Positions 261 to 53,999 of a DNA stretch of 56,894 nt are shown here, piece by piece. The DNA lies in the NCBI GenBank assembly GCA_043808365.1, contig JAZDEZ010000001.1:1-56894 (forward strand), written 5' to 3'. This DNA is from Patescibacteria group bacterium (GTDB lineage: Bacteria; Patescibacteriota; Patescibacteriia; UBA10025; JAHIVO01). The first letter of the stretch is position 1, and the number at the start of each line of letters is the position of its first letter. A model generated the notes under the pieces. That model was not told where the DNA came from, ran no database searches, and saw only the letters and a list, made by a program, of their open reading frames with translations. Both the position numbers and the translations under genes were made by a program.

Positions 261-917
261 ATGTCAAAAGACGTGTCCCCATCCGAACAGACAATTACAA
301 AAGGCCAATGCGGTAAGCTCATGGATGTGGGCGTAGACGCACTGGTCAAGAGTGGGTTGCCCAGCGAGCCTACCCAGTATGTTCTTGAGCACGAGAGCAT
401 AGAAATCGCTGCAAATCTGGTGGCCGATATCCGCACCCGTGTCGAAGCGCGCATCCGCGCCACCGAACCCCACATACTCAAGCGCCTGCCGTTCGATCCT
501 GAGAAGTTCATCGGGAAAGGCTGGTCGGTTGACGAACAGGTCTCAAAGCGCACTGGGGATAACCTGGATGCCGGTCAGATTACCCGTAAGGATTACCTCA
601 AAAAAGGTGAGCCCTCCATTAACGGAGAAGAGCGTCTTCGGCGTATCAAAGCCTCAGGCGAAGCAGACTTACAGCTCGATGCGTCTGACTGTGTCGCTCT
701 TTACCAAGAGGATGGCCAGAAAACCCTGCGTTGGCTTTACGAGACCAGGGGAGTCACTTGGCTCTCTTGCTGGGGAACTATTCTGCGCGACCCGGATGGC
801 GACCGCAGCGTCCTCTGCCTCTGTCGGCACGAGGACGGTTCCTGGCTCTGGGACTACTTTTGGGTCGACCACGACGGTTGGGACGCCGGCGGTCCTGCGG
901 GTGTGCTCGCAAAGTAG
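261..917 (+). CDS. DGR target-like (variable) protein candidate, 218 aa
   Basis: ORF with AAGGAGG 8 nt before the ATG; no signal peptide; the last ~42 codons (ILRDPDGD...GSWLWDYFWVDHDGWDAGGPAGVLAK) are homologous to the AAC-rich repeat at 1348-1469; visibly more GC-rich than its surroundings. Confidence 0.6.
   Translation: MSKDVSPSEQTITKGQCGKLMDVGVDALVKSGLPSEPTQYVLEHESIEIAANLVADIRTRVEARIRATEPHILKRLPFDPEKFIGKGWSVDEQVSKRTGDNLDAGQITRKDYLKKGEPSINGEERLRRIKASGEADLQLDASDCVALYQEDGQKTLRWLYETRGVTWLSCWGTILRDPDGDRSVLCLCRHEDGSWLWDYFWVDHDGWDAGGPAGVLAK
786..912 (+). repeat. VR-like segment at the 3' end of the target-like gene
   Basis: Hand alignment to 1348-1469: blocks 15/18, 23/33 and 9/9 identical; most mismatches lie opposite TR adenines, but there are also non-A mismatches and indels. 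Confidence 0.5.
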
Positions 918-1030: not shown

Positions 1031-1347
1031 ATATTTATGCTAAAATCAATGTGGTAGTAGGCGAATATGCCCCGACGTATCGTCGGGGCTGCCGAACCCA
1101 GTATCCATACACTCCTGAATGTCTCTGACTACGGTTTGAGACAGCGTGATGTATGCAGAATCTTCAAAATGAAGCTACTTGGTGCGTAATGCTAGGGCAT
1201 TATATATGCCAAATACGATACAATCCTAAGAGTCCCGACGTTGCGGACTCGTAAGGAATTTTGGTAGGTCGGGATCCCGATTTCCGTCAACAGTGGAACA
1301 TCGGGATATTCGAGGGATGGTGGCACGGACGGCGTGTTATACGCAAT

Positions 1348-1469
1348 CGCAACTCGGATGGCAACCTCTATGTGCGTTACCTCAACTGGGATGGTAGTCA
1401 GTGGAACTGGAACAACAACTGGCTCGACAATGACTGGAACGACAATAACCCGGCTGCGCTTGCTCGCAA
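1348..1469 (+). repeat. DGR template repeat (TR) candidate
   Basis: Intergenic; one frame gives RNRNSDGNLYVRYLNWDGSQWNWNNNWLDNDWNDNNPAALARN, i.e. AAC/AAT codons interspersed with fixed TGG codons as in known TRs; homologous to 786-912; exact TR borders uncertain (may start near 1290). Confidence 0.6.
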
Positions 1470-1481
1470 CTCACTTCATTT

Positions 1482-1515
1482 CTCCTCTAATATCTATTAG
1501 GGGAGTTTTATTTTT
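1482..1515 (+). terminator. Possible intrinsic terminator directly after the TR
   Basis: CTCCTC (1482-1487) pairs with GGGGAG (1500-1505, one G-U pair), followed by TTTTATTTTT; overlaps the 3' end of avd on the other strand. Confidence 0.4.
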
Positions 1516-1895
1516 GAGAGTTGTCCATTCCAGCCCCCGAGCATTTTACCGATTTCATCTATTTTCACCGACAGCACGATGTACTTTTTGTTATCCAGCG
1601 ACTTTGTTTCCCATAATATCATTAGGAGTATTTTCAGGGTGTCAGTTTTCTGAATAGCTCGTCTGACATAGGGCAGTTTTTCAGTTCGTCCTAAGAAACT
1701 CGCAGTTGCAATCGCTTCTATTGTTTCAATGAATAGAGTATCAATGCGCTGGCCAAGCGTGTGCCTGTGCGTTTTGGGTATTGTCTGAAAATAACCAAAC
1801 CAAAGCAGATAGGTGCTTTTTACCTTTTGCAGTACTGGCAAAAGTCTGGGGGGGGGGGTAGAATTAGCGGTATGAGTAAGATTCAACTCGTTCAT
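1497..1895 (-). CDS. avd: Avd-like accessory variability determinant (four-helix-bundle family)
   Basis: FQTIPKTHRHTLGQRIDTLFIETIEAI...KIDEIGKMLGGW matches remembered Bordetella phage BPP-1 Avd blocks (SIPRKHGVAREMF..., IAEVGRILGSW); an alternative TTG start at 1841 would give 114 aa. Confidence 0.75.
   Translation of the reverse strand: MNELNLTHTANSTPPPRLLPVLQKVKSTYLLWFGYFQTIPKTHRHTLGQRIDTLFIETIEAIATASFLGRTEKLPYVRRAIQKTDTLKILLMILWETKSLDNKKYIVLSVKIDEIGKMLGGWNGQLSKIKLP
1848..1858. repeat. G11/C11 homopolymer tract
   Basis: Eleven consecutive G on the + strand; encodes TPPPR in the avd N-terminus if avd starts at 1895; ends 14 nt upstream of the RT ATG at 1872. Confidence 0.95.
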
Positions 1896-2975
1896 GCGTA
1901 TCAGTATATCATTTCCATGGAGAATTTACTTGCCGCGTGGCAGGAATTTTTAGCTGGCAAGCGCTCTCGCCGAGATGTTCAAGAGTATGAGATTAATTTA
2001 ATGTGCAATATTATTTCGCTTCATAATAATCTTGCATCTAAGAAATATACACACTCTCCGTATCAAGCGTTTAATATTTCCGATCCCAAGCCACGCAATA
2101 TCCATAAAGCCAGCGTGCGAGACAGGTTATTACACCATGCGCTGCATCGTGTGTTATATCCGTTTTTTGATCGGACGTTTATTACTGATTCGTATTCGTG
2201 CCGGATTAATAAAGGTACGCATAAAGCCATTAATAGGTTTCATGCGTTTGCGTATAAGGCGTCACACAATAATACTAAAACCCTTTGGGTGTTAAAGTGT
2301 GATATTAAAAAGTTCTTTGCTTCAATAGATCAGTCAATCTTGATTGATATTATTAATGAATACATTCCCGACCAAGATATCCGCTGGCTTATAGGTCAGA
2401 TTGTCGGCAGTTTTCATTTAACCGAAGAAGGCAGGGGATTACCGCTTGGCAACCTGACATCCCAACTGTTTGTAAACGTGTACATGAACGAATTTGATCA
2501 ATTCGTAAAGCATAAGCTCAAAGCAAAGCATTACATACGATACGCGGATGATTTTGTTTTTATGTCAAACAGCAAATCATGGCTGGGATCACTTATTCCC
2601 TCGATTAGTGGTTTTTTGACAGCCAGACTTCAGCTCACACTACACCCGCAGAAATTGTTTCTGAAGACGTTGGCATCAGGCGTTGATTTTCTGGGGTGGA
2701 TACATTTTCCAGATCATCGAGTGTTGCGTACCACGGCTCGACGGCGGATGGCGAGCCGTATTATGGAACATCCAACTAATGAAACAATTCAGTCTTACTT
2801 AGGCTTGCTCAAACATGGGAATACTGAGAAAATAAAGTCGCAAATACTGGACAGCCAATACTATGCTGAAGTAAGCCCCGCCCGCTTCGCCTTGCGAAGC
2901 AAGGCGGGCGCGGCAAATGAGTCTCGGCCGGAGGCTGATCCGCCTTTGGCGGAAAATGTGAGACACCAGGTATGA
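1872..2975 (+). CDS. DGR-type reverse transcriptase
   Basis: MSKIQLVHAY...; RT motifs including GLPLGNLTSQLFVNVY (the [ILV]GxxxSQ signature of DGR RTs) and catalytic YADD (IRYADDFVF); no maturase/endonuclease extension; the ORF track start at 1761 is probably too early. Confidence 0.85.
   Translation: MSKIQLVHAYQYIISMENLLAAWQEFLAGKRSRRDVQEYEINLMCNIISLHNNLASKKYTHSPYQAFNISDPKPRNIHKASVRDRLLHHALHRVLYPFFDRTFITDSYSCRINKGTHKAINRFHAFAYKASHNNTKTLWVLKCDIKKFFASIDQSILIDIINEYIPDQDIRWLIGQIVGSFHLTEEGRGLPLGNLTSQLFVNVYMNEFDQFVKHKLKAKHYIRYADDFVFMSNSKSWLGSLIPSISGFLTARLQLTLHPQKLFLKTLASGVDFLGWIHFPDHRVLRTTARRRMASRIMEHPTNETIQSYLGLLKHGNTEKIKSQILDSQYYAEVSPARFALRSKAGAANESRPEADPPLAENVRHQV
2879..2910. repeat. GC-rich nested hairpin (REP-like) inside the RT 3' tail
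   Basis: Inner stem CTTCGC/GCGAAG (loop CTT) within outer stem GCCCG/CGGGC; same architecture as 24288-24325 upstream of the RAYT gene. Confidence 0.5.
2927..2955 (+). repeat. 29-nt hairpin repeat, copy 1 (RT tail)
   Basis: GCCGGAGGCTGATCCGCCTTTGGCGGAAA equals the reverse complement of 4916-4944 in ileS at 28/29 positions. Confidence 0.8.
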
Positions 2976-3024
2976 CATTTTAACTTCCCTGGAAGTAGGA
3001 CATTTTTAACTTCCCGTTGACAGG
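2968..3024 (+). mobile_element. Terminal inverted repeat (right end) of the putative transposon
   Basis: AGGTATGACATTTTAACTTCCCT..AAGTAGGACATT...GACAGG; the reverse complement of 56752-56806 matches at about 50 of 57 positions, with perfect 23-nt and 12-nt blocks; contains two copies of GACATTTT(T)AACTTCC; outer end reads ...TGACA. Confidence 0.6.
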
Positions 3025-3036
3025 ACAACCAGCCGC

Positions 3037-3065
3037 TTGACAAAAGCGCTGTTTTGGCGTACACT
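3037..3065 (+). promoter_or_regulatory. Sigma70-like promoter
   Basis: TTGACA, 17-nt spacer, TACACT, about 60 nt upstream of the 3125 ORF. Confidence 0.5.
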
Positions 3066-3124
3066 GGCCTGTTCACTTGGAAAACAGTTCTTAACATTCA
3101 AATATAGAAAGGCGGTTCGCAGTT

Positions 3125-3589
3125 ATGGCTACCCGGAATCATAAGCCGCATGGATCGCCCATTATTCGTTTTCTTTTCGAGTTTGGGCGGTATGCTTGGC
3201 TGGACGTGCCGATGCTTGTCTTGATCGGACTTTTTTATCGGCATTTTTCAACCCAGGGCGCGCATCCGGCTCCCGAATGGTTCACTTATTTTTACTGGGC
3301 AGAGCTCGGATTGTATCTCCCAATAAAGGAAGGCGCGCACAAATCTTATCCAAATTTGCGTACTCGCTGGGGCGGCATCAGAGTCGGGATTTGGATAGCT
3401 TTCATTATTGTTTGCGCTTTGATGAATTCTCAGTACCCGTCCAGGTTCAATAACATACCACCGTTGATGCCGCAGACCGTCATCATAGTAATCGGGGTAT
3501 TCATTTTTGGTGCCTGGGTTTCAAAAAAGCGCGTCCTGACGAAATTGACTGGCCAGATCGCCAAATTGGCAGCCAAATACGCCAAGTAA
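3125..3589 (+). CDS. Hypothetical polytopic membrane protein, 154 aa
   Basis: Long ORF with several hydrophobic helices (VPMLVLIGLFY, IRVGIWIAFIIVCALM, TVIIVIGVFIFGAWV). Confidence 0.6.
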   Translation: MATRNHKPHGSPIIRFLFEFGRYAWLDVPMLVLIGLFYRHFSTQGAHPAPEWFTYFYWAELGLYLPIKEGAHKSYPNLRTRWGGIRVGIWIAFIIVCALMNSQYPSRFNNIPPLMPQTVIIVIGVFIFGAWVSKKRVLTKLTGQIAKLAAKYAK

Positions 3590-4068: not shown

Positions 4069-4164
4069 CGAAAAGCTCCAGGAATATGACACCAGGAGCT
4101 TTTATTTTTTTCGAGTTTACACCTGGACAATACCTACATTTTTTTGTACAATCAGTACTACATT

Positions 4165-7152
4165 ATGCCTGACAATAAACAAAAGGCACCGACACCGAAA
4201 TCAATCTTCCCAGGGCTTGAAAAGGAAGTATTGGCTTTTTGGGAAAAGGAAAATATTTTTCAGAAGACGCTGGACCAGACGAAAACTGGAAAACCGTTTG
4301 TTTTTTTCGAAGGGCCGCCGACGGCTAATGGCAAGCCAGGCATCCACCATGTCTTAGCCCGGGCGTATAAGGACGTTATCGTCCGGTACAAGACCATGCG
4401 CGGTTTTTACGTCGAGCGGAAAGCCGGCTGGGATACGCACGGATTGCCAGTCGAGATTCAAGTCGAAAAAGAGCTGGGCATATCGGGCAAGCCGGAGATC
4501 GAAAAATTCGGCATTGAGGCATTCAACAAAAAATGCCGGGCCAGCGCGTGGAAATACAAGGCTGATTTGGAAGCCATGACCCGCAAAATCGGCTTTTGGC
4601 TGGACATGGAGCATCCGTATGTGACATATGAAAATAAATACATTGAGTCATTGTGGTGGGTGATCAAGCAGATCTGGGACAAAGGCTTATTATACAAAGG
4701 CCATAAAGTCGTGCCGCATTGCCCTCGCTGCGGTACGGCGTTGTCATCGCATGAGGTGGCGCTCGGCTATAAATCTGTTGAGGAGAATTCCGTTTACGTT
4801 AAGTTCAAAGTTGTCGGCCAAGAGAACACTTATATATTATCTTGGACTACGACACCGTGGACCTTACCTGGAAATGTTGCGCTTGCGGTAGGCGAGGATA
4901 TTGTTTATGTAAAGATTTCCGCCAAAGGCGGATCCGCCTCCGGCGGAAAAAATATAAGATATATTGTAGCGGAGGCGGTAGCAGGGAAGCTTTTTCCGGA
5001 AGCTGAAGTCGTGGAAACCCTAGCCGGCGAACAATTGGTTGGTTTGGAGTACGAACCGCTGTATGACATCAAGCCTTTGCAGAAAGAAACCGCGTATAAA
5101 GTTTATGCCGCTGATTTCGTCAATACCGAGGAGGGTACGGGCGTCGTCCATACTGCCGTCATGTACGGCGAGGACGATTTTCAGTTGGGAGAAAAAGTCG
5201 GTTTGCCGAAACACCATACTGTTGATCTGAACGGCAATTTTACGGCAGAAGTGTCCAAATGGGCCGGCCAATTCGTTAAAGATAAGTCAGTGGAAAAGGG
5301 GATTGTCGCTGATTTGCGTGAACGAGGACTGTTGCTGAAAGAGGAAATGTACCGCCATGATTACCCGTTTTGCTGGCGATGCGGGACGCCGCTCTTATAC
5401 TATGCAAAGGATTCATGGTTTATAATGGTTAGTAAAATTAGGGATGAGTTAATTAGGAACAATGAAACGATAAACTGGGTACCTGGGTACATCAAACACG
5501 GGCGGTTCGGCGAATGGCTGAACGAGGTCAAGGACTGGGCGTTTTCCCGCGAACGGTATTGGGGCACGCCGCTCCCGATCTGGGAATGCGAGAAATGCCA
5601 GGCGCGCGAATGCATCGGCTCGGTTGAAGAGCTCGTAGCTCGTAGCAAGGAGCACGTAGCAGGAAGCCACGCGCCACAAGCCACGCGCCACAAGCTGGAT
5701 TTGCACAAGCCATATGTCGATAAAATAACGTTTGTTTGTTCGTGCGGCGGGAACATGCACCGGGTCAAGGAAGTGGCGGATGTCTGGTTTGATTCCGGCG
5801 CCATGCCGTTTGCCCAGTGGCATTATCCGTTTGAGAATAAGGATCGCATTGACGCCGGCGGCAGTTATCCGGCTGATTTCATTGCCGAGGGCATTGACCA
5901 GACTCGGGGCTGGTTTTATACCTTGTTGACCGTCGCCACGCTGCTTGGTCATGGAGCGCCGTACAAGAATGTTATCTGCCTGAATCTGGTTTTTGACGCA
6001 AAAGGTCAAAAGATGTCCAAGTCAAAGGGCAATATCATTGACCCGTTTTATATTATCGACAAGTTCGGCGCCGACACGCTCCGTTGGTTTTTGTTTACCG
6101 TCAACCAGCCCGGGGACGCCAAGCTTTTCGACGAATCTCAATTGGACGAGGTCGTAAAGAAGCAGTGGCTGGTCCTTTGGAATATTTTGTCATTCTGGAA
6201 GATGCATGTCGGCCAGGCTAAAGATTCGTATCTTGATGAAAAGTTTACACAACCGCGAAGCGGGCACGTCCTGGACAAATGGATTCTGGCCAAGACGAAC
6301 GACACTATCGGCCAATGCACTAACCATTTGGAAAATTACAACATGACTGAATCCGGGCGCTTGATCGCTGAATTGATAAAGGAGCTGTCAACGTGGTACG
6401 TACGGAGGTCCCGTAACCGGTTCAAGATTGATGGGCAGGACAAGCAGGATGCCTTGGCGGTCTTGCGTTTTGCGTTGGTTACTATTGCCCGGTTACTGGC
6501 ACCGTATGCGCCGTTCATGGCTGAAGCACTTTACCGTGAAGTCAAGGGCCAGAACGAACCCATGAGCGTGCATCTGGCCGGTTGGCCGTCCGGTGAAGCG
6601 ACGGCAGAAGAAGCCGCGGTCATCCTGAAGCAAATGGTATTGGTCCGCCAGGCGGTTGAGCTTGGCCACAGCCTCCGGAAGGAAAAACAGATCAAGGTCA
6701 GGCAGCCATTGCCGCAATTCATCATTCGCGGCAAGCCACTAGACCCGGCACTGAAAGAGTTGGTCAAGGATGAGGCCAATGTAAAGGAAGTGATCTGCGT
6801 GGAAAAAATGCCCCAAGGCCCGGAATTTGCCGTAAAAGAAGCCGGCAGTCTGGCCGTGGCTCTGGACATGACCATTACGGATGAGCTGAAATATGAAGGC
6901 ATGGTCAGGGAGATGATCCGCCAGATCAATGCCATGCGCAAGGACGCGAAATTGACCATCGGTGACACAGTCGCCTTGTATTATGAAATTCCCGATCAGG
7001 AATTGGAAAAGATGTTCCTCCATTATAAAAATACGATCATCCGCGATGTCATCGCCAGCGGTTGCCTGAAGGGCATCCCTGATAATGTCGACCTGAAGAC
7101 CGTATTTGAAATTGCGGGCGTCCGCGTGACGTTCGGCATCAAAGGGAAATAG
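4165..7152 (+). CDS. ileS: Isoleucyl-tRNA synthetase
   Basis: Class I signatures (PTANGKPGIHHVLAR, KMSKSKGN), WTTTPWTLPGN editing-domain block, zinc CxxC pairs; ATG at 4165 is in frame with the track ORF. Confidence 0.95.
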   Translation: MPDNKQKAPTPKSIFPGLEKEVLAFWEKENIFQKTLDQTKTGKPFVFFEGPPTANGKPGIHHVLARAYKDVIVRYKTMRGFYVERKAGWDTHGLPVEIQVEKELGISGKPEIEKFGIEAFNKKCRASAWKYKADLEAMTRKIGFWLDMEHPYVTYENKYIESLWWVIKQIWDKGLLYKGHKVVPHCPRCGTALSSHEVALGYKSVEENSVYVKFKVVGQENTYILSWTTTPWTLPGNVALAVGEDIVYVKISAKGGSASGGKNIRYIVAEAVAGKLFPEAEVVETLAGEQLVGLEYEPLYDIKPLQKETAYKVYAADFVNTEEGTGVVHTAVMYGEDDFQLGEKVGLPKHHTVDLNGNFTAEVSKWAGQFVKDKSVEKGIVADLRERGLLLKEEMYRHDYPFCWRCGTPLLYYAKDSWFIMVSKIRDELIRNNETINWVPGYIKHGRFGEWLNEVKDWAFSRERYWGTPLPIWECEKCQARECIGSVEELVARSKEHVAGSHAPQATRHKLDLHKPYVDKITFVCSCGGNMHRVKEVADVWFDSGAMPFAQWHYPFENKDRIDAGGSYPADFIAEGIDQTRGWFYTLLTVATLLGHGAPYKNVICLNLVFDAKGQKMSKSKGNIIDPFYIIDKFGADTLRWFLFTVNQPGDAKLFDESQLDEVVKKQWLVLWNILSFWKMHVGQAKDSYLDEKFTQPRSGHVLDKWILAKTNDTIGQCTNHLENYNMTESGRLIAELIKELSTWYVRRSRNRFKIDGQDKQDALAVLRFALVTIARLLAPYAPFMAEALYREVKGQNEPMSVHLAGWPSGEATAEEAAVILKQMVLVRQAVELGHSLRKEKQIKVRQPLPQFIIRGKPLDPALKELVKDEANVKEVICVEKMPQGPEFAVKEAGSLAVALDMTITDELKYEGMVREMIRQINAMRKDAKLTIGDTVALYYEIPDQELEKMFLHYKNTIIRDVIASGCLKGIPDNVDLKTVFEIAGVRVTFGIKGK
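4916..4944 (-). repeat. 29-nt hairpin repeat, copy 2, in frame inside ileS
   Basis: TCCGCCaaaGGCGGA followed by TCCGCCtccGGCGGA (two perfect 6-bp hairpins); translated as SAKGGSASGGK. Confidence 0.8.
5631..5700 (+). repeat. Heptamer-periodic tract inside ileS
   Basis: gctcgta gctcgta gcaagga gcacgta gcaggaa gccacgc gccacaa gccacgc gccacaa gctggat: ten 7-nt units all starting GC; encodes ELVARSKEHVAGSHAPQATRHKLD. Confidence 0.7.
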
Positions 7153-8190: not shown

Positions 8191-10218
8191 ATGGCGAAAA
8201 AAACAAAGTCAGACAAGAAAAATTCAGCGGTTGAAAACGAGCAAACCAGCCCCCAGGCAGACCGGGAAGCAATCCGGAGAATTTTAGTTTCGGATGAATC
8301 TGAAGAAAATGGCAGCGCTGCAGAATCGGCGACTCCGGACAAGGATTTTGCCGCCATGTATCAGGCCAGAGGCACGGCCCGTTCTGAAATGTTCACTATC
8401 GACCGTCGGGACCCGAATAGACGGAAAAAGATGATCGCCATGATCGTGGGCGGTCTGGTGTTGATTGTCGGCGTGACCCTCGCGGGTTTTTATTATTTTG
8501 TCAGCCGGCAGCCGCAGTTCGCAGGCGAAAATATTTCAATCATCACGACGGCACCGCCCGCAGTGGCCGCGGGCGCTGACAATACATTTTCGATCACCGT
8601 ACGGAATGACGAGCTGGTTGAGATTAAAAACGTTATGGTAACCGTCCAATTTCCCGATGGTTTTATTTATAAATCGTCTTCACCGCCCGCCGAAAATGAC
8701 GCGCATAATGCCTGGGCCCTGGATACTATCGGTAATGGGAAAAGTAGGACGGTAGAAATTATCGGCCAGCCATTCGGCGATATCGGCACCATGCAGTCAT
8801 TTTCCATCCTGGTCAGTTATACGCCGGCGAATTTCAATTCAGAATTTCAGAAGGACAGTTCATTCAACGTGACGCTGAACAAGTCCGCGATCAACTTGAA
8901 TATGGAAGTGCCTCTGAAAGTGGTCAGTGGCCATGCGGCGGATTACCGAATCAAGTTTACGAATACGTCAAAAGACGTATTTAACCGAGTGCGCTTGGCC
9001 ATCGCCTGGCCGGAAGATGTGGTCGTCGGCAGTCTAAATCCAGCGCCGACTGATGCCGGCAAACGTACCTGGGAGATTGACCAGATCGCCGCTGGCGCCA
9101 GCTATGAAGTGTCTTTCAAAGGCACGGTATCCGGCGCAGAAGGAGCGATGCGCGAATTCAAAGCGGAAGTCGGCTATACTGACGCAGCCGGCCAGTATCA
9201 TAAGCAGGCAGAAGGCTCGTCGATCGTCATTGTGGCTAATCCGCAACTCCTGTTGAATTTATCTATTAATGACAGTACTACCAATACTGCCGTTGATTTT
9301 GGCAGTATTTTGGACTATACGTTGAAATACCGGAACGACAGCCAAACAGAAATCAAGGACATGGGATTGCAAATCAAAGCTGACAGCAGCCTGATTGATT
9401 GGAATAAAATCATCAATACGAATAACGGCAAGGTTGTCGGCAGTACGGTGACATGGGATGGCGACGCAGTACCGGCCCTGAAATCAGTCAAACCGGGGGA
9501 TGAGGGAGAGGTGAAAATCCGCGTCAGCGTAAAAGACGCCCCTCAGCCAAAGACAACCAGCGATAAAAATTACGCGATCGTAAGCCAGGCCAAGGCTGTC
9601 TCGACTAACGTCGTTGATCTGGCCGGCGGCTCATTATCCATCGAAAGTAATAGTTTGACTACGAAAATTAACAGTAAAGTCTCATTGCGGGCAGAGGGCC
9701 GGTATTATTCAGACGAAAATGTCGCCGTTGGAGCTGGGCCGTTACCGCCGCAAGTTGGGCAAAAAACTACCTATGTCGCGTATTGGTACCTGACGAACAA
9801 CGGCAATGAGGTTCAGAATGTCACTGTCACGACTGTGTTGCCAGAGTGGGTTGCTTGGGAGAATATTATAAAAGTTACTGCCGGTACAATGAGTTTTGAC
9901 GGCACAACTCGGACTGTCACCTGGTCAATCAATAAATTGCCGGCCCAAATCGGACAGCTCATCCCGGAACTGGCGGCCCAATTTTCCATATCCGTCACCC
10001 CGACCAGCGCTGATGTCGGAAAATTATTAATATTGACCGGGAAAAGCATCGGATCAGGAGTCGATACATTTACCAGCCAAACGCTGTCGCCATCCCAGGA
10101 TATGATCACTTCTGATTTGGCACAAGATCCGCAAGCTTCAGGTAAGGGGGTTGTTGTTGATCAATTTTTAACGAATACAAACACGAATGTGAATGTAAAT
10201 TCATCCGGCAACCAGTAA
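8191..10218 (+). CDS. Large membrane-anchored extracytoplasmic protein with repeated beta-rich modules
   Basis: MAKKTKSDKK... charged N-terminus, single TM helix (MIAMIVGGLVLIVGVTLAGFYYF), then ~550 aa of repetitive T/S/N/V-rich sequence; family not recognised. Confidence 0.65.
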   Translation: MAKKTKSDKKNSAVENEQTSPQADREAIRRILVSDESEENGSAAESATPDKDFAAMYQARGTARSEMFTIDRRDPNRRKKMIAMIVGGLVLIVGVTLAGFYYFVSRQPQFAGENISIITTAPPAVAAGADNTFSITVRNDELVEIKNVMVTVQFPDGFIYKSSSPPAENDAHNAWALDTIGNGKSRTVEIIGQPFGDIGTMQSFSILVSYTPANFNSEFQKDSSFNVTLNKSAINLNMEVPLKVVSGHAADYRIKFTNTSKDVFNRVRLAIAWPEDVVVGSLNPAPTDAGKRTWEIDQIAAGASYEVSFKGTVSGAEGAMREFKAEVGYTDAAGQYHKQAEGSSIVIVANPQLLLNLSINDSTTNTAVDFGSILDYTLKYRNDSQTEIKDMGLQIKADSSLIDWNKIINTNNGKVVGSTVTWDGDAVPALKSVKPGDEGEVKIRVSVKDAPQPKTTSDKNYAIVSQAKAVSTNVVDLAGGSLSIESNSLTTKINSKVSLRAEGRYYSDENVAVGAGPLPPQVGQKTTYVAYWYLTNNGNEVQNVTVTTVLPEWVAWENIIKVTAGTMSFDGTTRTVTWSINKLPAQIGQLIPELAAQFSISVTPTSADVGKLLILTGKSIGSGVDTFTSQTLSPSQDMITSDLAQDPQASGKGVVVDQFLTNTNTNVNVNSSGNQ

Positions 10219-11439
10219 TGTCTATTATTCATGCGAAGCCATACCGTGTCATGGCGTCTTCAAAAAAAAGCAAGGCGCGTCTTGGGTTATTATCAACAGC
10301 GCATGGTCAAGTGACGACGCCTGTGTTTATGCCGATTGCCACGCGTGGCGCCGTAAAGACGCTGAGGCCGGATGAAATACGGGGGACTGGCGCGCAGCTC
10401 ATATTATCAAACACATATCACCTCTGGCAGCGGCCAGGCTTGCCGGTCATAAAAAAAGCCGGCGGTTTGCATGCTTTTATGGGATGGTCCGGATCGATCC
10501 TGACAGATTCGGGCGGGTATCAGGTTTTTTCATTGGCCAGGTCACGGAAAATCACCGAACGCGGCGTCCAGTTCACGTCGGACATTGACGGCCAAAAATA
10601 TTTATTGACTCCGGAGAAGGCGATCGATATTCAGCATGCGCTCGGTTCTGACATTATTATGAGTTTAGATGAATGTCCGCCATATCCCAGTACTCATGCC
10701 TATGCCGAGCGTTCGTTGGCTATGACCACCCGGTGGGCGATTCGATGCAAAACTAGGAACTTGGAATTCAGAACTAGGAACTCTGAACTTGGGACAGGGA
10801 ACTTGGGACAGGGAACTTGGAACTCAGAACTAGGAACAATGAACAGGGGGAAAGATTTAAAGTTTAGTGTTCAAAGTTCACGGTTACTTTTTGGCATCGT
10901 ACAAGGCTCGGTCTATCAGGACTTGCGGGAGCGAAGCGCGCGGCAATTGGTCCAGCTCGAACTTGACGGCTATGCCATCGGCGGACTGGCTGTCGGCGAG
11001 CCGACGGAAAAGATGTACCAGGCGATTGATTGGGTGGAGCCAATATTGCCGGAAAACAAGCCTCGGTACCTGATGGGCGTGGGATACCCGGAACAGATCA
11101 TTGAGGCGGTGAAGCGAGGCATTGATATGTTTGATTGTGTCTTGCCGACGCGGAATGCCAGGCACGGCTCGTTATTCAATTTCAAAAATAAAACATCAAA
11201 AATCAAATTTTGGGGAAAGAAATTTTATGATGAAATGCTGATTAAGCAATCCCGTTATGCAGCCAGTGGACCGGGGTTGCGATTGCTATATGTGCCGGCA
11301 TTTTTCACGCGCGTACCTGCGCCACCTGTTCATGACTGGGGATCCGCTGGGTCAGCGATTAGCGACCATCCATAACGTAACGTTTTATATGAAGTTAATG
11401 GGACAAATCCGTGACCATATCAAAAAAGGAAAATTATAA
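10218..11439 (+). CDS. tgt: Queuine tRNA-ribosyltransferase, reading frame broken near 11255 (frameshift or sequence error)
   Basis: LSNTYHL, LTDSGGYQVFSL, DECP and GGLAVGE in frame 0 (10218-11375); the canonical zinc/C-terminal block PVDRGCDCYMCRHFSRAYLRHL...TIHNVTFYMKLM is in the +1 frame ORF 11257-11439. Confidence 0.85.
10749..10846 (+). repeat. Heptamer-periodic tract inside tgt (14 units)
   Basis: aaaacta ggaactt ggaattc agaacta ggaactc tgaactt gggacag ggaactt gggacag ggaactt ggaactc agaacta ggaacaa tgaacag; translated as KTRNLEFRTRNSELGTGNLGQGTWNSELGTMNRG. Confidence 0.85.
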
Positions 11440-24357: not shown

Positions 24358-24888
24358 ATGTCCAGATATTTTCTCGATGGAGCGTATTATTTCATTACCG
24401 TACCAACGATTGGGCATCGGCGTTTTTTTGATACTTCGGAAAAAAAACAGTGCGTTCTAGCCAAATTCCATGAGGCTGCGCAAAAGTATCATCTACGAGA
24501 TTTTGATTTCAGTATCGTTTCCGATCATTATCATGTAGTTTCGTTTTTTGAAAAAGGTTTGTTCATTCCGAAATTTCTCCAATACGTAAATGGTGGTAGC
24601 GCGTATGTCTTCAACAAGTTGACTGGTAATAGCATACAGGTTTGGGATGAATACCATGTTTATGTCGTTGAGGATGATGCCGTTTTAGCACGAGTGTGTG
24701 GGTATGTAGTTGGGAATCCTTTAAAACATGGAGAGGTTAAGAATTTCGAAGAATTGGCACATTATCCATTCTCTAGTTATCAGCTTCTGGCGGAGCGGCT
24801 AGGTGACGAAACAGCACTAGAATATGTAAGGTCAGTGGTTCTACTGGATGATGCAAGATTGGCCAGTGACCTAACTAAAGTTTATTAG
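24358..24888 (+). CDS. REP-associated tyrosine transposase (RAYT / IS200-like HUH Y1 transposase)
   Basis: YYFITV, HUH motif SDHYHVV and C-terminal YVVGNPLKHGEVKNFEELAHYPFSSY align to remembered E. coli RayT blocks (TWFFTV, PEHMHCIW, YIYINPVKHGWVKQVSDWPFSTF). Confidence 0.8.
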   Translation: MSRYFLDGAYYFITVPTIGHRRFFDTSEKKQCVLAKFHEAAQKYHLRDFDFSIVSDHYHVVSFFEKGLFIPKFLQYVNGGSAYVFNKLTGNSIQVWDEYHVYVVEDDAVLARVCGYVVGNPLKHGEVKNFEELAHYPFSSYQLLAERLGDETALEYVRSVVLLDDARLASDLTKVY

Positions 24889-25552: not shown

Positions 25553-25675
25553 GCCATTAGTATAAACCCCCAGCGAGCTTACTGTCAAAAGCAGTCCCTT
25601 GACTTTGATGGTGTTTTTGGCATAAGATGGAGCATTGAACATTGACAATTAACATTCTGAAATAGGAGCATTAAT

Positions 25676-41387: not shown

Positions 41388-41497
41388 TCATATTATGGCA
41401 CTTAACCTCATCGACCCCGTCATCCGACGGGGCGAGACGAGCCAGTAAGAGAATCAATTGTATATAATGCAATGTTCTATAATTGTGGAATTTTTTT

Positions 41498-42325
41498 ATG
41501 ATGTTAATTGATACGCATGCCCACCTGGATTTTGGCGAATATATCGAAGACCAGCCTGACGTCATTCGTCGGGCGGTGGCGGCTGGCGTAAAAAAAATAA
41601 TAACTGTCGGCTGTGATGCCGGGCATTTTTTATCTTCCCTGGAATTAGCAAGGGAAAACCCGGAAATATATGCGGCCATCGGGTACCATCCGCATGAAGC
41701 CGTCAGTATGATGTCCCATGACAGCACGGTCATCGAGAAAAATATTAGGGAGGCGATGGCATTGTTGGAAGAACGTGTCCGGAGCACGAAACTCGTGGCT
41801 ATCGGCGAAATTGGACTTGATTATTATCGACTGGCGCCGGTCGGGCACCAGGATCATATAACCGTGAAAAATGTGCAGACGATGTTATTTGCCGAGCAAT
41901 GCAATCTGGCTGTAAAAAACGGTTTGCCGGTCATTATCCATTGTCGCGAGGCTTATGATGATGTTTTTTCCGTTTTGTCGTCATTGCCGAAGGAACGGAT
42001 CAGGGGAGTCATCCATTGTTTTGAGGGAGGCTGGGCTGACGCACAAAAATTTCTGTCATTAGGTTTCAAGATTTCTTTTACCGGCAATCTGACTTATGAG
42101 CGCGCGTCGGATACGATTGAGGCGGCCAGGCTGATACCGGCGGCTGACCTGATGGTAGAAACTGATTGCCCGTACCTGACGCCGGTGCCGTTGCGCGGCC
42201 AGCGGAATGAGCCCGCGTACGTAGAATACGTTTGCCGGCGTCTGGCGGAGATACGAGAGGTGACGCCAGAAGAGATGGCTGACCAAACGACGCGGAATGC
42301 CGTAGATTTTTTTAAACTCACCTAA
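41498..42325 (+). CDS. tatD: TatD family metal-dependent hydrolase, copy 1
   Basis: IDTHAHLDF, IGEIGLDY, IIHCREA and ETDCPYLTPVPLRGQRNEP. Confidence 0.9.
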   Translation: MMLIDTHAHLDFGEYIEDQPDVIRRAVAAGVKKIITVGCDAGHFLSSLELARENPEIYAAIGYHPHEAVSMMSHDSTVIEKNIREAMALLEERVRSTKLVAIGEIGLDYYRLAPVGHQDHITVKNVQTMLFAEQCNLAVKNGLPVIIHCREAYDDVFSVLSSLPKERIRGVIHCFEGGWADAQKFLSLGFKISFTGNLTYERASDTIEAARLIPAADLMVETDCPYLTPVPLRGQRNEPAYVEYVCRRLAEIREVTPEEMADQTTRNAVDFFKLT

Positions 42326-42494: not shown

Positions 42495-43334
42495 ATGTTA
42501 ATTGATACCCATGCTCATCTGAATTTTTCCGCCTTTAAGGATGACTTGGACGAAGTAGTGGGCCGGGCGAGCAATGCGGGAATGAAAGTGATCAACGTCG
42601 GTTCGCAATATTCAACGAGCCAGCGGGCCGTAGAACTGGCAAAAAAATATCCTGGAGTCTGTTATGCGGCCATCGGACTGCATCCGATCCACCTTTTTGA
42701 ATTGCACGTCGATGTCGAGGAAATGCCGTTTAATTCCCGGCGGGAGGAGTACCAGGCGGAAGCGTATCGGACGCTGGCAAAAAATCCGGGGGTGGTCGCG
42801 ATCGGCGAAGTCGGCCTGGATTATTTCCAGATTCCTGCCGGGGTGACAAAGACAGATTTCAAGATTAAGCAGAAGTGGGTTTTCCTGAAGCAATTACAAT
42901 TGGCAAAAGAATTAGCATTGCCTGTGATTTTGCATTGTCGAGGCGAGAAAGACGAAATGGAGCATGCGTATCTCGATATGCTCCATGTTCTTAAAGAAGT
43001 GGATTACCAGCGAGTCGTTATCCATTGTTATACTGCAGATTTTGATATCGCTAAAAAATTCCTGGAATTCGGAGCGATGATTTCATTTACCGGCATCATC
43101 ACGTATCCAAAGACCGAAAAACTGGCCACAGTCGTGAAGCGCGTACCTTTAGACAGGATCATGGTCGAGACTGACTGCCCGTATCTGGCGCCGCAAATCG
43201 TGCGCGGCCAGCGCAATGAGCCGCGGTTTGTCCAGTACGTGGCCGGCAGGATTGCCGATATCAAGGGATTACCGTACAATGAAGTCGAGGAGCAGACCAC
43301 GAAAAATGCTTTGAGTTTCTTTAGCCTGAAATAA
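42495..43334 (+). CDS. tatD: TatD family metal-dependent hydrolase, copy 2
   Basis: IDTHAHLNF, IGEVGLDY, ILHCRGE and ETDCPYLAPQIVRGQRNEP. Confidence 0.9.
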   Translation: MLIDTHAHLNFSAFKDDLDEVVGRASNAGMKVINVGSQYSTSQRAVELAKKYPGVCYAAIGLHPIHLFELHVDVEEMPFNSRREEYQAEAYRTLAKNPGVVAIGEVGLDYFQIPAGVTKTDFKIKQKWVFLKQLQLAKELALPVILHCRGEKDEMEHAYLDMLHVLKEVDYQRVVIHCYTADFDIAKKFLEFGAMISFTGIITYPKTEKLATVVKRVPLDRIMVETDCPYLAPQIVRGQRNEPRFVQYVAGRIADIKGLPYNEVEEQTTKNALSFFSLK

Positions 43335-43411: not shown

Positions 43412-43699
43412 ATGACGTATTACGTGTATATTCTTACCAACAAGTCCAATACAGTACTGTATATCGGGACTACTCGTAATCTTGAATATCGGGTTTGGCA
43501 ACATAAACATAAAGAAGTGCCTGGATTCACTAGTCGTTATAATGTAGTGAAGTTAGTTTATTATGAGGAATATGATTTGGCGATTGACGCGTTTACTAGG
43601 GAGAAACGTCTGAAAAATTGGCATCGGGATTGGAAAATTAATTTAGTCACTGGTGTTAACCCAACTTTCGTTGACCTGTCAGCTGCGTGGTATAGATAG
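43412..43699 (+). CDS. GIY-YIG nuclease family protein, paralog 2
   Basis: YYVYILTNKSNTVLYIGTTRNLEYRVWQHK...REKRLKNWHRDWKINL; clearly paralogous to 34956-35258. Confidence 0.85.
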   Translation: MTYYVYILTNKSNTVLYIGTTRNLEYRVWQHKHKEVPGFTSRYNVVKLVYYEEYDLAIDAFTREKRLKNWHRDWKINLVTGVNPTFVDLSAAWYR

Positions 43700-49473: not shown

Positions 49474-51006
49474 ATGCCAACCACAGATTACATTGTTGGA
49501 GAGCTAAAAAAGCAGATTGCAGATTTTAAATCAACCATTGCGCACGCCAAGGTCGGCACTGTCGAAGAAGTCGGCGACGGTATCGCCCGTCTGTCCGGAC
49601 TGTCAAACGTCATGGCTTCGGAAATGCTGGAGTTTTCCGATGGGGTGTACGGCGTCGTCCTCAACCTTGAGGAAGATTCCGTCGGTGCCATCATCCTCGG
49701 CGACTATACCGGCATCAAGGTGGGCGACCAGGTGAAAAGTACCGGCAAGGTGCTACAGGTGCCTGTCGGGAAAAATTTAGTCGGCCGTGTCGTGAATCCG
49801 CTTGGCCAACCTTTGGACGGCAAGGGCGAGATAAAATCTGACGCATTTTATCCGGTGGAGAAAATCGCGCCCCGCGTCATCACCCGTGAATCGGTAAAGA
49901 CGCCGTTGCAGACCGGCATCAAAGCCATTGATTCCATGATCCCGATCGGCCGGGGCCAGCGCGAATTGATCATCGGCGACCGCCAGACCGGCAAGACCGC
50001 TCTGACGCTGGATGCCATTATCAACCAAAAGGGTAAAGGCGTGATTTGTATTTATGTCGCCATTGGCCAGAAAGAATCAAAAATTGCCAAGATCGTGACT
50101 GAATTCGAGAAGCATGGTGCCATGGAGCATACGATCGTGGTGGTAGCTGGCGCATCTGATCCGGCTTCATTGTCCTACATTGCCCCGTATGCCGGCTGTG
50201 CCATGGGCGAATATTTTATGGACCAGGGCGGGGATGCGCTGGTGATCTATGACGACTTGTCTAAGCACGCCTGGGCTTATCGTGAAATATCATTGCTGTT
50301 GCGCCGTCCGCCGGGCCGTGAAGCGTATCCAGGGGACGTGTTTTATCTGCACTCCCGTTTGCTCGAGCGGGCCGCAAAACTGAACAAGAATTACGGCGGC
50401 GGCTCGTTGACCGCATTGCCGATCATTGAAACGCAGGCCGGCGATATCTCGGCTTATATCCCGACCAACGTCATTTCCATCACAGACGGACAGATTTATC
50501 TGGAATCAGATTTATTTTACCAGGGCATCCGGCCGGCTTTGAACGTCGGCTTGTCAGTATCACGCGTCGGCTCGTCCGCCCAAACTAAGGCCATGAAAAA
50601 AGTGGCTGGCAAGCTTCGCCTCGACCTGGCGCAATATCGCGAGTTAGCGGGTTTTGCCCAATTCGGTTCCGACTTGGACGAATCGACACGCAAACAATTG
50701 GAACGCGGCAAGCGTCTGACTGAAATGCTGAAGCAGATCCAATTCCAGCCCATGCCCGTTGAAAACCAAATTACGATCATCTACGCGGCAGTGAACGGAT
50801 ACCTGGATGACGTTGAGGCGAGCCGAGTGCAGGAATTTGAGGCCGCATTCCATAAGTATTTCAACGCCAGTAAGGCAGATTTGCTGAAAAAGATCCTCAG
50901 TGTCGGGGAATTAACTCCTGAGGTTGATGATTTGCTGAAAGTAGCTATTGAAGATTTCAGGAAGACTACGGACTACGGACTACGGACTACCGCGGCTGGA
51001 AAATAG
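49474..51006 (+). CDS. atpA: F1 ATP synthase subunit alpha
   Basis: Walker [10 protein letters not shown]; the last 14 codons are encoded by the heptamer tract at 50964-50991. Confidence 0.95.
50964..50991 (+). repeat. Heptamer tandem repeat (GACTACG x3 + GACTACC), left arm of the cassette
   Basis: Read directly; translated as TTDYGLRTT at the atpA C-terminus. Confidence 0.9.
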
Positions 51007-51010
51007 GGAT

Positions 51011-51370
51011 ATGTATTTCAGATTTGAAAAATTGGAGGTATGGAAATTAGCAAAAGATTTTGCGAGCAAGATTTACGGTTTGACAAAAAGTTTTCCTGAT
51101 TCAGAACGATTTGGAATGGTGTCTCAGTTACGAAGAGCAGCCATTTCAATCTCGATGAATATTGCCGAAGGATTTGATAGAAAATCTGATGCAGATTTTA
51201 TAAGATTCTTGCGGATGTCAATCGGTTCTCTTGAGGAAGTTATTACCGTCTTATATATCGCCATTGACCAAAAGTACATCAAGTCGGACGATTTCAAGTC
51301 AGCCTATCAAGACACTAATTTATTAGCAGCAAAAATTAACGCTTTAATAAAAAGTCTTCAGACGAAATAA
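51011..51370 (+). CDS. Four-helix-bundle protein (23S rRNA intervening-sequence protein family)
   Basis: MYFRFEKLEVWKLAKDFASKIYGLTKSFPDSERFGMVSQLRRAAISISMNIAEG is the classical family signature. Confidence 0.85.
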   Translation: MYFRFEKLEVWKLAKDFASKIYGLTKSFPDSERFGMVSQLRRAAISISMNIAEGFDRKSDADFIRFLRMSIGSLEEVITVLYIAIDQKYIKSDDFKSAYQDTNLLAAKINALIKSLQTK

Positions 51371-51382
51371 CCATACTGTGGT

Positions 51383-51402
51383 CGGTAGTCTGTGGACCGT
51401 AG
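51383..51402 (+). repeat. Right arm of the cassette (inverted partner of 50964-50992)
   Basis: CGGTAGTC pairs with GACTACCG (50985-50992) and CCGTAG with an upstream CTACGG. Confidence 0.65.
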
Positions 51403-51411
51403 ACAAGCCTT

Positions 51412-52320
51412 ATGGCTATAATGACACGAGAAATTAAGCGTCGGATCCGATCCGTCACCAGCACGCGCAAGATCACTAAAGCGATGGAGCTGGTGGCGGC
51501 CGCGAAAATGAGACGCGCGGTCAAAGCTGTCTTGGCAACGCGCGCGTATTCGCACGCGGCCTGGCAAATCGTTCAGGAGCTGGCTAGCCTGACCGATCCG
51601 GCGTCGCATCAACTCTTACAAAAGCGAACTACGGTAAGAAAAGTCGGCGTGATTATGATGACTTCAAACCGCGGATTATGCGGCGGGTTTAACCATGAAA
51701 TCATCGATATGGTCGCTGAATACGTCAGGAATTATCCGAAGGAAAATAGTCAGGTTGACACTGAGGTATTATTGATGGGCAAGCGCGGCCGTGACATCAT
51801 GTACAAACATGGACATGAGATTGTGGCGGAGTTTGACAAGGTTGACGTAGCGCTACGCGTTACGGAAGTTACGCCTCTCGCGCAAATGGCCATTGCTGAT
51901 TATATTTCCGGTAAATATGACAAAGTCGTAATCGCATACACTGATTATTTTTCAGCCATGAAACAGAAACCCCGCATCAAACGGTTATTGCCGATCAGCC
52001 ACGAGGATGACGAACTGGGCAGTATTGGCGGAGCTGCTCATAAAAAAAATAATGAAAAAGATCACGAATACCTTTTTGAGCCCTCAACAGATATAGTGCT
52101 AGACCAAATGTTAGCCAGGCTCATAGAAGTGCAGCTGTACCAGGCCTTACTGGAATCAAACGCGTCAGAACATTCAGCGCGGATGATGGCCATGCGTAAT
52201 GCCTCGGATGCGGCATCGGACATGATCAGCGACCTGACGCTGACGTTCAACCAAGCTCGCCAACAGATGATCACCTCTGAACTGGCCGATATTTCCTCTG
52301 GCAGCGCCGCAGTTTCATAA
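51412..52320 (+). CDS. atpG: F1 ATP synthase subunit gamma
   Basis: N-terminal IKRRIRSVTSTRKITKAMELVAAAKMRRA and C-terminal ITSELADISSGSAA. Confidence 0.9.
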   Translation: MAIMTREIKRRIRSVTSTRKITKAMELVAAAKMRRAVKAVLATRAYSHAAWQIVQELASLTDPASHQLLQKRTTVRKVGVIMMTSNRGLCGGFNHEIIDMVAEYVRNYPKENSQVDTEVLLMGKRGRDIMYKHGHEIVAEFDKVDVALRVTEVTPLAQMAIADYISGKYDKVVIAYTDYFSAMKQKPRIKRLLPISHEDDELGSIGGAAHKKNNEKDHEYLFEPSTDIVLDQMLARLIEVQLYQALLESNASEHSARMMAMRNASDAASDMISDLTLTFNQARQQMITSELADISSGSAAVS

Positions 52321-52336
52321 ATTTTTTTTAATTTTT

Positions 52337-52405
52337 AATTACTAATTCCTAATCAAACCCCAATGATTTAATGACCAATTAGACATTGATTAGAAATTAG
52401 AAATT
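52337..52405. repeat. ORF-less inverted heptamer-periodic arms in the atpG-atpD spacer
   Basis: AATTACTAATTCCTAATC (52337-52354) vs the reverse complement of GATTAGAAATTAGAAATT (52388-52405): 16/18; AAACCCCAAT directly follows the left arm. Confidence 0.7.
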
Positions 52406-52428
52406 CGTCATTAGTAATTAAATAATAG

Positions 52429-53823
<1,395 letters not shown>

Positions 53824-53875
53824 ATAGACTCGTACTCGTCGAGAGGTTTGATGCCAGCACTATGAAGGGTCGATA

Positions 53876-53999
53876 AATTACCAATAACCAATATCCAATT
53901 TCCAATGAAACCCCAATTTTCAATAAACCAATGACTGATATAATTTTACATTGTGGCATTGGACATTCATTGGATATTGGAATTTGGTAATTGGATATT
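53876..53999. repeat. ORF-less inverted heptamer-periodic arms in the atpD-atpC spacer
   Basis: 34-nt arms (53876-53909 and 53966-53999) match 28/34 as an inverted repeat; units aattacc aataacc aatatcc aatttcc; AAACCCCAAT at 53908-53917. Confidence 0.7.

Follow-up and report, generated by a model that had tools for sequence, protein, structure and literature searches.

A four-helix-bundle gene between inverted heptamer arrays at the atpA–atpG junction of a Patescibacteria bacterium, resembling the intervening sequences of 23S rRNA

Intervening sequences (IVSs) that carry an open reading frame (ORF) occur in the 23S rRNA genes of Leptospira, Brucella and Haemophilus. In Coxiella burnetii, the 23S IVS is 428 nt long and closed by a 28-bp terminal stem; three GACAGAT heptamers and a degenerate GACAGAA lie just upstream of the start of its S23p ORF, RNase III cleaves where the first repeat begins, and the ORF was considered by the authors to be decaying and probably untranslated (PMC4990558). 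ORFs designated 23S_rRNA_IVP (here IVP, for intervening sequence protein) have also been found in rRNA insertions of the Candidate Phyla Radiation (CPR; 10.1101/2024.02.27.582315) and reported as "associated" with cas loci (PMC3936711, PMC10910872). Until now, IVS elements have counted as an oddity of rRNA genes with a dispensable ORF. Here, we analyzed positions 1 to 56,894 (forward strand) of contig JAZDEZ010000001.1 from a Patescibacteria group bacterium (JAHIVO01), a stretch of 56,894 nt that we call the window, in which an IVP gene stands between atpA and atpG of the ATP synthase operon. We favor the reading, at a probability of about 0.7, that this is an IVS-type cassette, consisting of a promoterless four-helix-bundle gene in the loop of an inverted-heptamer stem and lodged in the atp mRNA operon.

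The IVP gene is preceded by tandem heptamers at the very end of atpA. GACTACG units start at 50964, 50971, and 50978 and are followed by a degenerate GACTACC at 50985–50991; Tandem Repeats Finder (TRF) scored the array as 3.9 copies of period 7 with 100% matches. The last unit ends 19 nt ahead of the IVP ATG, which itself lies 4 nt past the atpA stop codon (51004–51006). Downstream of the gene, the second arm is an imperfect reverse complement of these heptamers, and 9 nt separate its end from the atpG ATG. The two arms are 85% complementary over 20 nt (50973–50992 with 51383–51402) and 80% complementary over an extended 25 nt (50966–50990 with 51378–51402). When the segment 50940–51425 was folded as RNA, the long-range stem was closed in both the minimum free energy (MFE) and the centroid structures, and none of 100 dinucleotide shuffles (mean −107.9, SD 4.6) reached its −130.8 kcal/mol (z = −4.95). 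The 13-mer GACTACGGACTAC, allowing up to two mismatches, occurs four times in the window, all within the two arms, against an expectation of 0.34, and 0 of 100 shuffles reached that count. The original prediction, made from the letters of this DNA, had proposed that the repeats enclose the ORF in a stem; its repeats, ORF, and downstream arm agree with the DNA base for base, its stem is borne out by the complementarity and by both folds, and the one position to be corrected is the IVP start, which is the ATG at 51011 rather than 51012.

Table 1. Coordinates of the atp cassette, of related elements, and of the diversity-generating retroelement (DGR) in the window, with IVP loci at other sites. 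Positions are those of the window except for loci with L handles. RT, reverse transcriptase; TR, template repeat.
Feature	Position	Strand	Description
atpA (F1 alpha, 510 aa)	49474–51006	+	TIGR00962 E 4e-248, residues 7–498; PF00006, PF00306, PF02874
5' arm, GACTACG x3 + GACTACC	50964–50991	+	paired stretch in fold ~50973–50998
IVP / four-helix-bundle gene, 119 aa	51011–51370	+	PF05635, TIGR02436, PDB 2gsc
3' arm, CTGTGGT CGGTAGT CTGTGGA CCGTAG	51376–51402	+	TRF: period 14, 1.9 copies
atpG (F1 gamma, 302 aa)	51412–52320	+	PF00231 E 8e-90
ORF-less hairpin, atpG–atpD spacer	52322–52420	+	TNCTAAT facing ATTAGAA; ends 14 nt before atpD ATG
ORF-less hairpin, atpD–atpC spacer	53872–53999	+	NCCAATN facing ATTGGAN; ends ~10 nt before ATG 54009
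Syntenic loci L161, L162, L163			IVP 70–73%, atpA 74–79%, atpG 63–65% identical to window
L084 IVP	2998–3351		between tRNA genes; 7-unit GTCTACR arrays both sides
L104 IVP	1574–1954		directly after a tRNA
L120 IVP	2989–3420		~110 nt past archaeal 23S rRNA gene
DGR target-like ORF	261–917		
N-rich, TR-like stretch	~1261–1500		
bAvd-like gene	1497–1895	−	PF22296 E 1.3e-12, 48.6 bits, cutoff 40
RT	1761–2975	opposite to bAvd	RVT_1 E 5e-21

The resemblance to the Coxiella IVS is detailed. Both elements encode a PF05635 protein within a terminal inverted-repeat stem, both place three heptamers and one degenerate unit immediately upstream of the start codon, their sizes are ~430 nt and 428 nt, and in both the heptamer copy number differs between lineages; the IVS geometry read from the letters alone thus matches the published element (PMC4990558). 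What does not match is the location. The host of an rRNA IVS is helix 45 or helix 25 of 23S rRNA, whereas that of the atp cassette is an mRNA operon junction, between atpA and atpG, and because it does not lie inside a 23S rRNA gene, we file the cassette as a variant rather than a member of the rRNA IVSs, within the same element class. Two further differences concern coding. Translation of atpA runs through the 5' heptamer arm in its last 14 codons (50965–51006), so that, unlike in an rRNA IVS, the arm forms the AtpA C-terminal tail and a host stop codon lies inside the element; the TIGR00962 model of atpA ends its match at residue 498 of 510, leaving the heptamer-encoded tail outside the conserved protein. 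The IVP itself is under purifying selection (dN/dS ~0.1), whereas the Coxiella ORF is reported to be decaying. RNase III cleavage has been demonstrated for the Coxiella IVS, whereas for the atp cassette it is predicted. The IVS architecture here stands among the protein-coding genes of an operon and extends into the end of an essential one. For annotation, it means that the odd AtpA C-terminal tail and the long low-GC spacers of this atp operon are element-derived and are not assembly errors.

The cassette also stands apart from its surroundings in composition. Its GC content is 0.35, as opposed to 0.50–0.53 in atpA and atpG, and along the sequence GC runs at 0.35–0.39 over 51000–51400 and at ~0.5–0.57 on either side. 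A consensus scan found neither a promoter nor a terminator belonging to the IVP gene and no terminator-like site in 50716–52665; a promoter-like match at 51393–51422 was discounted since its −10 box overlaps the atpG start codon. At the gathering threshold, Rfam recognized no rRNA or other RNA family in the window. The literature that we searched describes no IVS-type cassette in an mRNA operon and, apart from the Coxiella IVS, no link between a four-helix-bundle gene and a heptamer array, an absence that is no proof of novelty.

The assignment of the inserted protein to its family is clear. It matches PF05635 nearly end to end (E 8e-37; 126.1 bits against a cutoff of 33.8; residues 6–110 on profile positions 1–105 of 106) and TIGR02436, the four helix bundle protein model (E 4e-36; 123.6 bits against a cutoff of 24), so that both full-length matches stand above the curated cutoffs. 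Among solved structures, it matches PDB 2gsc (XCC0516, a homopentameric four-helix bundle) over residues 5–117 (E 1.5e-24) and PDB 2rld (E 3.4e-6). A family motif, GxxRxxxSxxxNxxE, has been reported (PMC3936711); the corresponding region of the IVP is QLRRAAISISMNIAEG, in which RxxxSxxxNxxE is present and the first G of the motif is replaced by Q in this clade, and R42, S46, N50, and E53 are invariant across an alignment of 39 sequences. PF05635 was the sole Pfam match at E ≤ 0.01, and PF22296 (bAvd) was not among the matches; none of the PADLOC-DB defense models matched at the same E value, and phmmer, with the IVP as query, returned no paralogue among all the six-frame ORFs in the window. 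Among the four atpA–atpG copies described below, dN/dS was 0.09–0.13, with dS saturated in two of the pairs. The protein is thus maintained by strong purifying selection and must do something.

We compared the junction with that of 80 species-representative genomes with close AtpA relatives, all of them Patescibacteria/CPR or neighboring metagenome-assembled genomes. An atpG match was also present in 78 of the 80, and none of these carried an IVP between atpA and atpG, including the nearest relative (L001; atpA 86% and atpG 74% identical), where the spacer is 4 nt. The gene is thus an insertion at this junction, as had been claimed. The premise behind that claim, that atp operons run from A to G without interruption, was too strong for this phylum: the median spacer is 24 nt, but 10 of the 75 measured spacers exceed 300 nt, and the seven such gaps that we examined contain ORFs without similarity to the IVP by tblastn.

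Unrelated small ORFs at atpA–atpG or atpG–atpD were seen in L009 (deaminase-like), L011, L027, L043, L045, L051, and L054, and most of the unrelated ORFs in atp gaps have a GC content below that of the locus around them. In the flanks of seven unrelated atpA–atpG ORFs (L009, L011, L027, L043, L051, L054, and L069), we found no obvious heptamer-array stem; their flank duplex energies, given as raw values without a matched null, were −15 to −38 kcal/mol. As far as this small sample goes, the stem accompanies IVP genes and not inserted genes in general.

The three closest IVP homologues (P0002, P0004, and P0005; 70–73% identical) all lie at the atpA–atpG junction of other metagenome contigs (L161, L162, and L163), and all three carry the repeats, so that the finding that would have spoken for an ancient operon member, a syntenic gene free of repeats, was not made. 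Their 5' arms read GACCACA GACTACA GTCGACA GTCTACG in L161, GACAACA GACTACA GTCTACA GACTACC in L162, and GACTACG x3 GACTACA GATGACG GTCAACA GACTACA in L163. In each, the locus's own heptamer arm is read as the AtpA tail, complementary units follow downstream, the IVP starts 1–14 nt after the atpA stop, and the long-range stem is found in both the MFE and the centroid fold. The IVP is lower in GC (0.30–0.35) than the flanking atpG (0.39–0.50) in all four copy-bearing genomes and lower than atpA (0.41–0.53) in three of the four; in L163, where atpA is represented by a 160-nt fragment only, the values are 0.33 for atpA and 0.30 for the IVP. In neighbor-joining trees of atpG and of the atpA C-terminus, both from short alignments, cassette-bearing lineages interleave with the cassette-less L001–L004. 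Taken at face value, this suggests either that an old, single gain was followed by clean loss in two or three cases or that the cassette arrived repeatedly at this one site.

Conservation of the junction copy in four lineages under purifying selection could also be expected if the IVP were a dedicated accessory subunit or chaperone of the ATP synthase and the repeats were incidental slippage of native atpA codons. The atpA tail lends this some color: the codons for K-T-T-D-Y (AAG ACT ACG GAC TAC) already spell two heptamer units, the first two, and the native tails of cassette-less relatives are similar (KKTTNF in L001; DY or DF in L003, L007, and L013). Because of this resemblance, the left boundary of the foreign sequence is blurred, and either native codons went into part of the arm or were homogenized with it, or the element inserted where the sequence already looked like its arm. 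We nevertheless regard an accessory subunit as very improbable. The nearest relative does without the gene, slippage alone does not produce complementarity between the 5' and 3' arms, and the gene family and its heptamer design are found in dozens of unrelated operons, in tRNA arrays, and in rRNA. Moreover, GWCTACR heptamers also accompany related IVP genes elsewhere, namely, in L085 (nusG–rplK), L084 (a tRNA array), and L081; because related proteins at other sites carry such heptamers, we favor the view that the arms belong to the element.

The gene-plus-inverted-heptamer design proved to be a trait of the family as a whole, recurring in many co-directional operons and stable-RNA arrays. A profile of 39 homologues led us to 80 further metagenome loci whose proteins are 37–63% identical, and we scored periods 4–12 in the 100-nt flanks of 72 usable genes and in 1439 control segments from the same loci. 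Period 7 was best in 52 of the 72 upstream flanks (72%) and in 41 of the downstream flanks (57%), compared with 154 of the controls (11%; Fisher 7e-32 and 5e-20, respectively). Tandem units make the register of a stem ambiguous, and we therefore assessed complementarity by comparing locus-matched with mismatched arms. At the threshold used, period-7 arrays were detectable on both sides at 27 of 77 loci, and in 16 of these 27 the upstream consensus was the reverse complement of the downstream one at at least 6 of 7 positions, as opposed to 5.6% of mismatched pairs. Upstream–downstream duplexes averaged −30.3 kcal/mol for true pairs and −20.1 kcal/mol for mismatched pairs, and a locus's own arm was the best duplex partner in 12–18 of 78 loci, where ~1 is expected. 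The heptamer is locus-specific, often of the form GAC/GTC-N-A-N-N, and the more alike two proteins are, the more alike their heptamers tend to be (Mantel rho 0.29; 0 of 2000 permutations); pairs of loci with more than 70% protein identity share on average 6 of 7 heptamer positions. Since heptamer similarity tracks protein identity, the arms and the ORF have been inherited together.

Both neighbors are co-directional with the IVP in 48 of 60 loci, with spacers of ~30–100 nt. One context recurs, nusG followed by the IVP and rplK, with NusG upstream in 8 loci and L11 downstream in 5; copies of it are present in many metagenome contigs (including L083, L085, L086, L089, L092, L093, and L128), and nusG–rplK is either another conserved or hot site of insertion or the result of an insertion made long ago in a different clade. 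The neighbors form pairs with linked functions; besides nusG–rplK, they include pheS–pheT, an ABC permease followed by an ATPase, LemA followed by an M48 peptidase, Cas6b followed by Cas1, and complex I subunits, and one family copy is located after atpG. This gives a non-functional explanation for reports that the family is "associated" with cas loci and with other operons, in which its genes may just be lodging.

Heptamer arrays are not confined to IVP genes. Of most interest is what was found beyond the positions first noted, namely, the generality of the design and the ORF-less hairpins in the same operon. Two such hairpins occupy the next two atp spacers. The one between atpG and atpD folds better than all of 200 shuffles (z = −3.26), and the one between atpD and atpC reaches −36.6 kcal/mol (z = −3.28). 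The atpG–atpD spacers of L001 (38 nt) and L161 (27–40 nt) are short, and for this reason the hairpin there is lineage-specific too. At the atpA–atpG junction itself, six genomes (L008, L010, L018, L019, L046, and L056) have ORF-less heptamer arrays, each with a different heptamer and most of them inverted pairs folding as hairpins, such as TCGTGTA/TACACGA in L056 (−43 kcal/mol). In L056, moreover, a distant IVP-like gene follows atpD.

Hairpins at three consecutive atp junctions, with 3' arms ending 9–14 nt before the starts of atpG, atpD, and atpC, might instead be intercistronic regulators of benefit to the host, which would set segmental mRNA stability or couple translation and in one of which an IVP gene had lodged. 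Their recurrence at atpA–atpG in other CPR genomes is consistent with such a role, as is the arrangement in L001, where only 4 nt separate the atpA stop from the atpG start and no Shine–Dalgarno sequence is obvious, which points to ancestral coupling. Close relatives, however, have spacers of 4–40 nt and no hairpin, so the hairpins are dispensable, and the arrays are tied to IVP genes across the family whatever the operon. We consider a regulatory origin improbable.

Some arrays lie within genes. The tgt gene (10218–11375) contains ~14–15 AACTTGG-like heptamers at 10751–10890, followed by complementary AAAGTTY units; the array amounts to a 35-aa in-frame insertion (105 nt, or 15 x 7) in the encoded queuine tRNA-ribosyltransferase, and residues 182–216 of the query have no counterpart in solved Tgt structures. 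About ten in-frame tandem heptamers (GCTCGTA/GCACGTA/GCCACGC/GCCACAA) occur at 5629–5695 of ileS (4144–7152), for which we found no inverted partner. A lone array at 25627–25654 (ATGGAGC ATTGAAC ATTGACA ATTAACA), likewise with no partner arm found, lies just upstream of an ORF that starts at 25676 and has no Pfam match. Across the window, period 7 was the only short period to form arrays: there are seven, compared with none for periods 5, 6, and 8–11 and none in shuffles.

On our favored reading, that of an IVS-type cassette, the events at the atp locus can be pictured as follows. The cassette would be transcribed within the atp polycistron, and with a start codon 1–14 nt past the atpA stop, IVP translation would depend on ribosomes finishing atpA (termination–reinitiation). 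Arms free of ribosomes would pair into a stem of ~20–26 bp, and, judging by the rRNA elements, such a stem is a plausible substrate for RNase III. Cutting would set the cassette RNA free and leave the atp message in two halves, one atpA-proximal and the other atpG-proximal. By this analogy, we put RNase III excision at this locus at roughly even odds. The four syntenic copies all have the atpA stop on the loop side of the 5' arm, and because a cut made before translation would leave a non-stop atpA mRNA, cleavage is probably partial or competes with translation.

Several observations weigh against this account. Cutting the stem would deprive atpA of its stop codon, a loss that is presumably costly. 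Over 78 loci, the sense stem was not more stable than the antisense stem (34 versus 43; Wilcoxon p = 0.29), and G·U pairing therefore gives no family-level support for a role at the RNA level; at individual loci, sense was favored over antisense in the window (−49.2 versus −32.9 kcal/mol) and in L161 (−45.4 versus −37.1 kcal/mol). A motif search of the 57-kb window found no RNase III signature, although the gene may be elsewhere in the genome. That a stem needs no gene is shown by the ORF-less heptamer hairpins of this operon and of relatives; the hairpin may be the basic unit, with the gene as an optional passenger, or the hairpins may be remnants left after loss of the ORF. ORF-less and ORF-bearing elements side by side also have a parallel in the rRNA IVSs. 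Finally, some homologue loci have no clear stem or period-7 arrays, and only 27 of 77 have arrays on both sides, so that the combination of gene and inverted heptamers is a strong tendency across the family and not a rule.

The missing sense-strand advantage is one point in favor of a different interpretation, in which the heptamer arrays are a MITE-like (miniature inverted-repeat transposable element) or palindromic unit, mobile or recombinogenic at the DNA level, the IVP is its cargo or a factor acting in trans, and the RNA stem is a by-product. Hairpins or cruciforms would form in replication, and arrays would spread or expand by slippage or template switching. Such a unit would account for the ORF-less hairpins in the atpG–atpD and atpD–atpC spacers and at atpA–atpG of the six CPR genomes, for the in-frame arrays in tgt and ileS, for period 7 as the sole array-forming short period of the window, and for the interleaving of cassette-bearing and cassette-less lineages in the trees, which implies clean losses or repeated gains. 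On the other hand, the hairpins of this one genome use unrelated heptamers (GACTACG, TNCTAAT, NCCAATN, and AACTTGG) and so offer no shared terminus to a transposase, which also sets them apart from transposons and MITEs as a class; no direct target-site duplication was evident when filled and empty atpA–atpG sites were compared, no transposase is linked to the cassettes, and in the one relative studied experimentally the stem is a site of RNA processing (PMC4990558). We regard an element acting at the DNA level as unlikely, while giving it real weight.

Small hairpin-forming insertions in operons are known from other bacteria. The Correia elements of Neisseria (also called NEMIS, Neisseria miniature insertion sequences) are co-transcribed inverted-repeat elements processed by RNase III, and the Rickettsia palindromic elements (RPEs) are in-frame palindromic elements. 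The elements described here share with them a small size, hairpin formation, and insertion in operons, in some cases in frame as with the tgt array; there is no sequence relationship, however, and those families have termini conserved within a genome, carry no ORF, and are not known for heptamer periodicity. Intergenic heptamer arrays also have precedents, among them the short tandemly repeated repetitive (STRR) heptamers of cyanobacteria. Direct repeats of the heptamer TAACTGA have been described in intergenic spacers of Beggiatoaceae, Cyanobacteria, and Bacteroidetes (PMC4679880). Common features are tandem 7-nt units in operon spacers, often near a start codon, and a patchy distribution. 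TAACTGA-type arrays, however, are direct repeats of one conserved heptamer, with one inverted set reported, and four-helix-bundle genes are not mentioned (PMC4679880); here, the heptamer differs from locus to locus and the arrays face each other in inverted orientation, with a gene or a short loop between them.

We tentatively entertain a broader element class, described nowhere so far, which we think possible but doubtful: an Avd-like four-helix-bundle gene within a locus-specific inverted-heptamer stem, of which the 23S IVS would be the best-known habitat. In Patescibacteria, as well as in other bacteria and in archaea, its members would colonize junctions of heavily transcribed units (atp, nusG–rplK, pheST, ABC transporters, cas operons, tRNA arrays, and rRNA) and would leave ORF-less hairpins behind, even in frame in genes such as tgt. 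The protein would act on the arrays (in binding, maintenance, or spread), possibly, by analogy with Avd, with an RT in trans, and such action would account for the covariation of heptamer type and protein. In any case, the link between four-helix-bundle genes and heptamers offers a handle on the function of S23p/IVP proteins and on why bacteria accumulate intergenic heptamers.

A second member of the four-helix-bundle superfamily had been predicted in the window, in a DGR, and PF22296 locates it as the bAvd-like gene of Table 1. Superfamily membership is what the atp IVP shares with Avd; unlike Avd, it has no adjacent RT, template, or variable repeat, and the RT of the window is 48 kb away. 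No sequence similarity between the Avd of the window and the atp IVP was detectable by phmmer, a profile comparison was nonsignificant, and nothing links the two functionally. Another ORF, at 1334–1654, was rejected as an Avd candidate, as its hhalign probability was 0.3% and it reads through the N-rich, TR-like stretch. Seeds of 7–10 nt recovered no template/variable repeat pair in the DGR locus.

Elsewhere in the window, we noted three further features. A 176-aa ORF at 24358–24885 has a weak match to IS200-like Y1 transposases (E 7.7e-5, at the Pfam cutoff). Two TatD-family DNase paralogues lie in tandem at 41483–42322 and 42495–43331 and share a 40-nt direct repeat with 78% identity, and a 95-aa stand-alone ORF with a GIY-YIG nuclease domain is found at 43412–43696, between a TatD DNase gene and rmuC.

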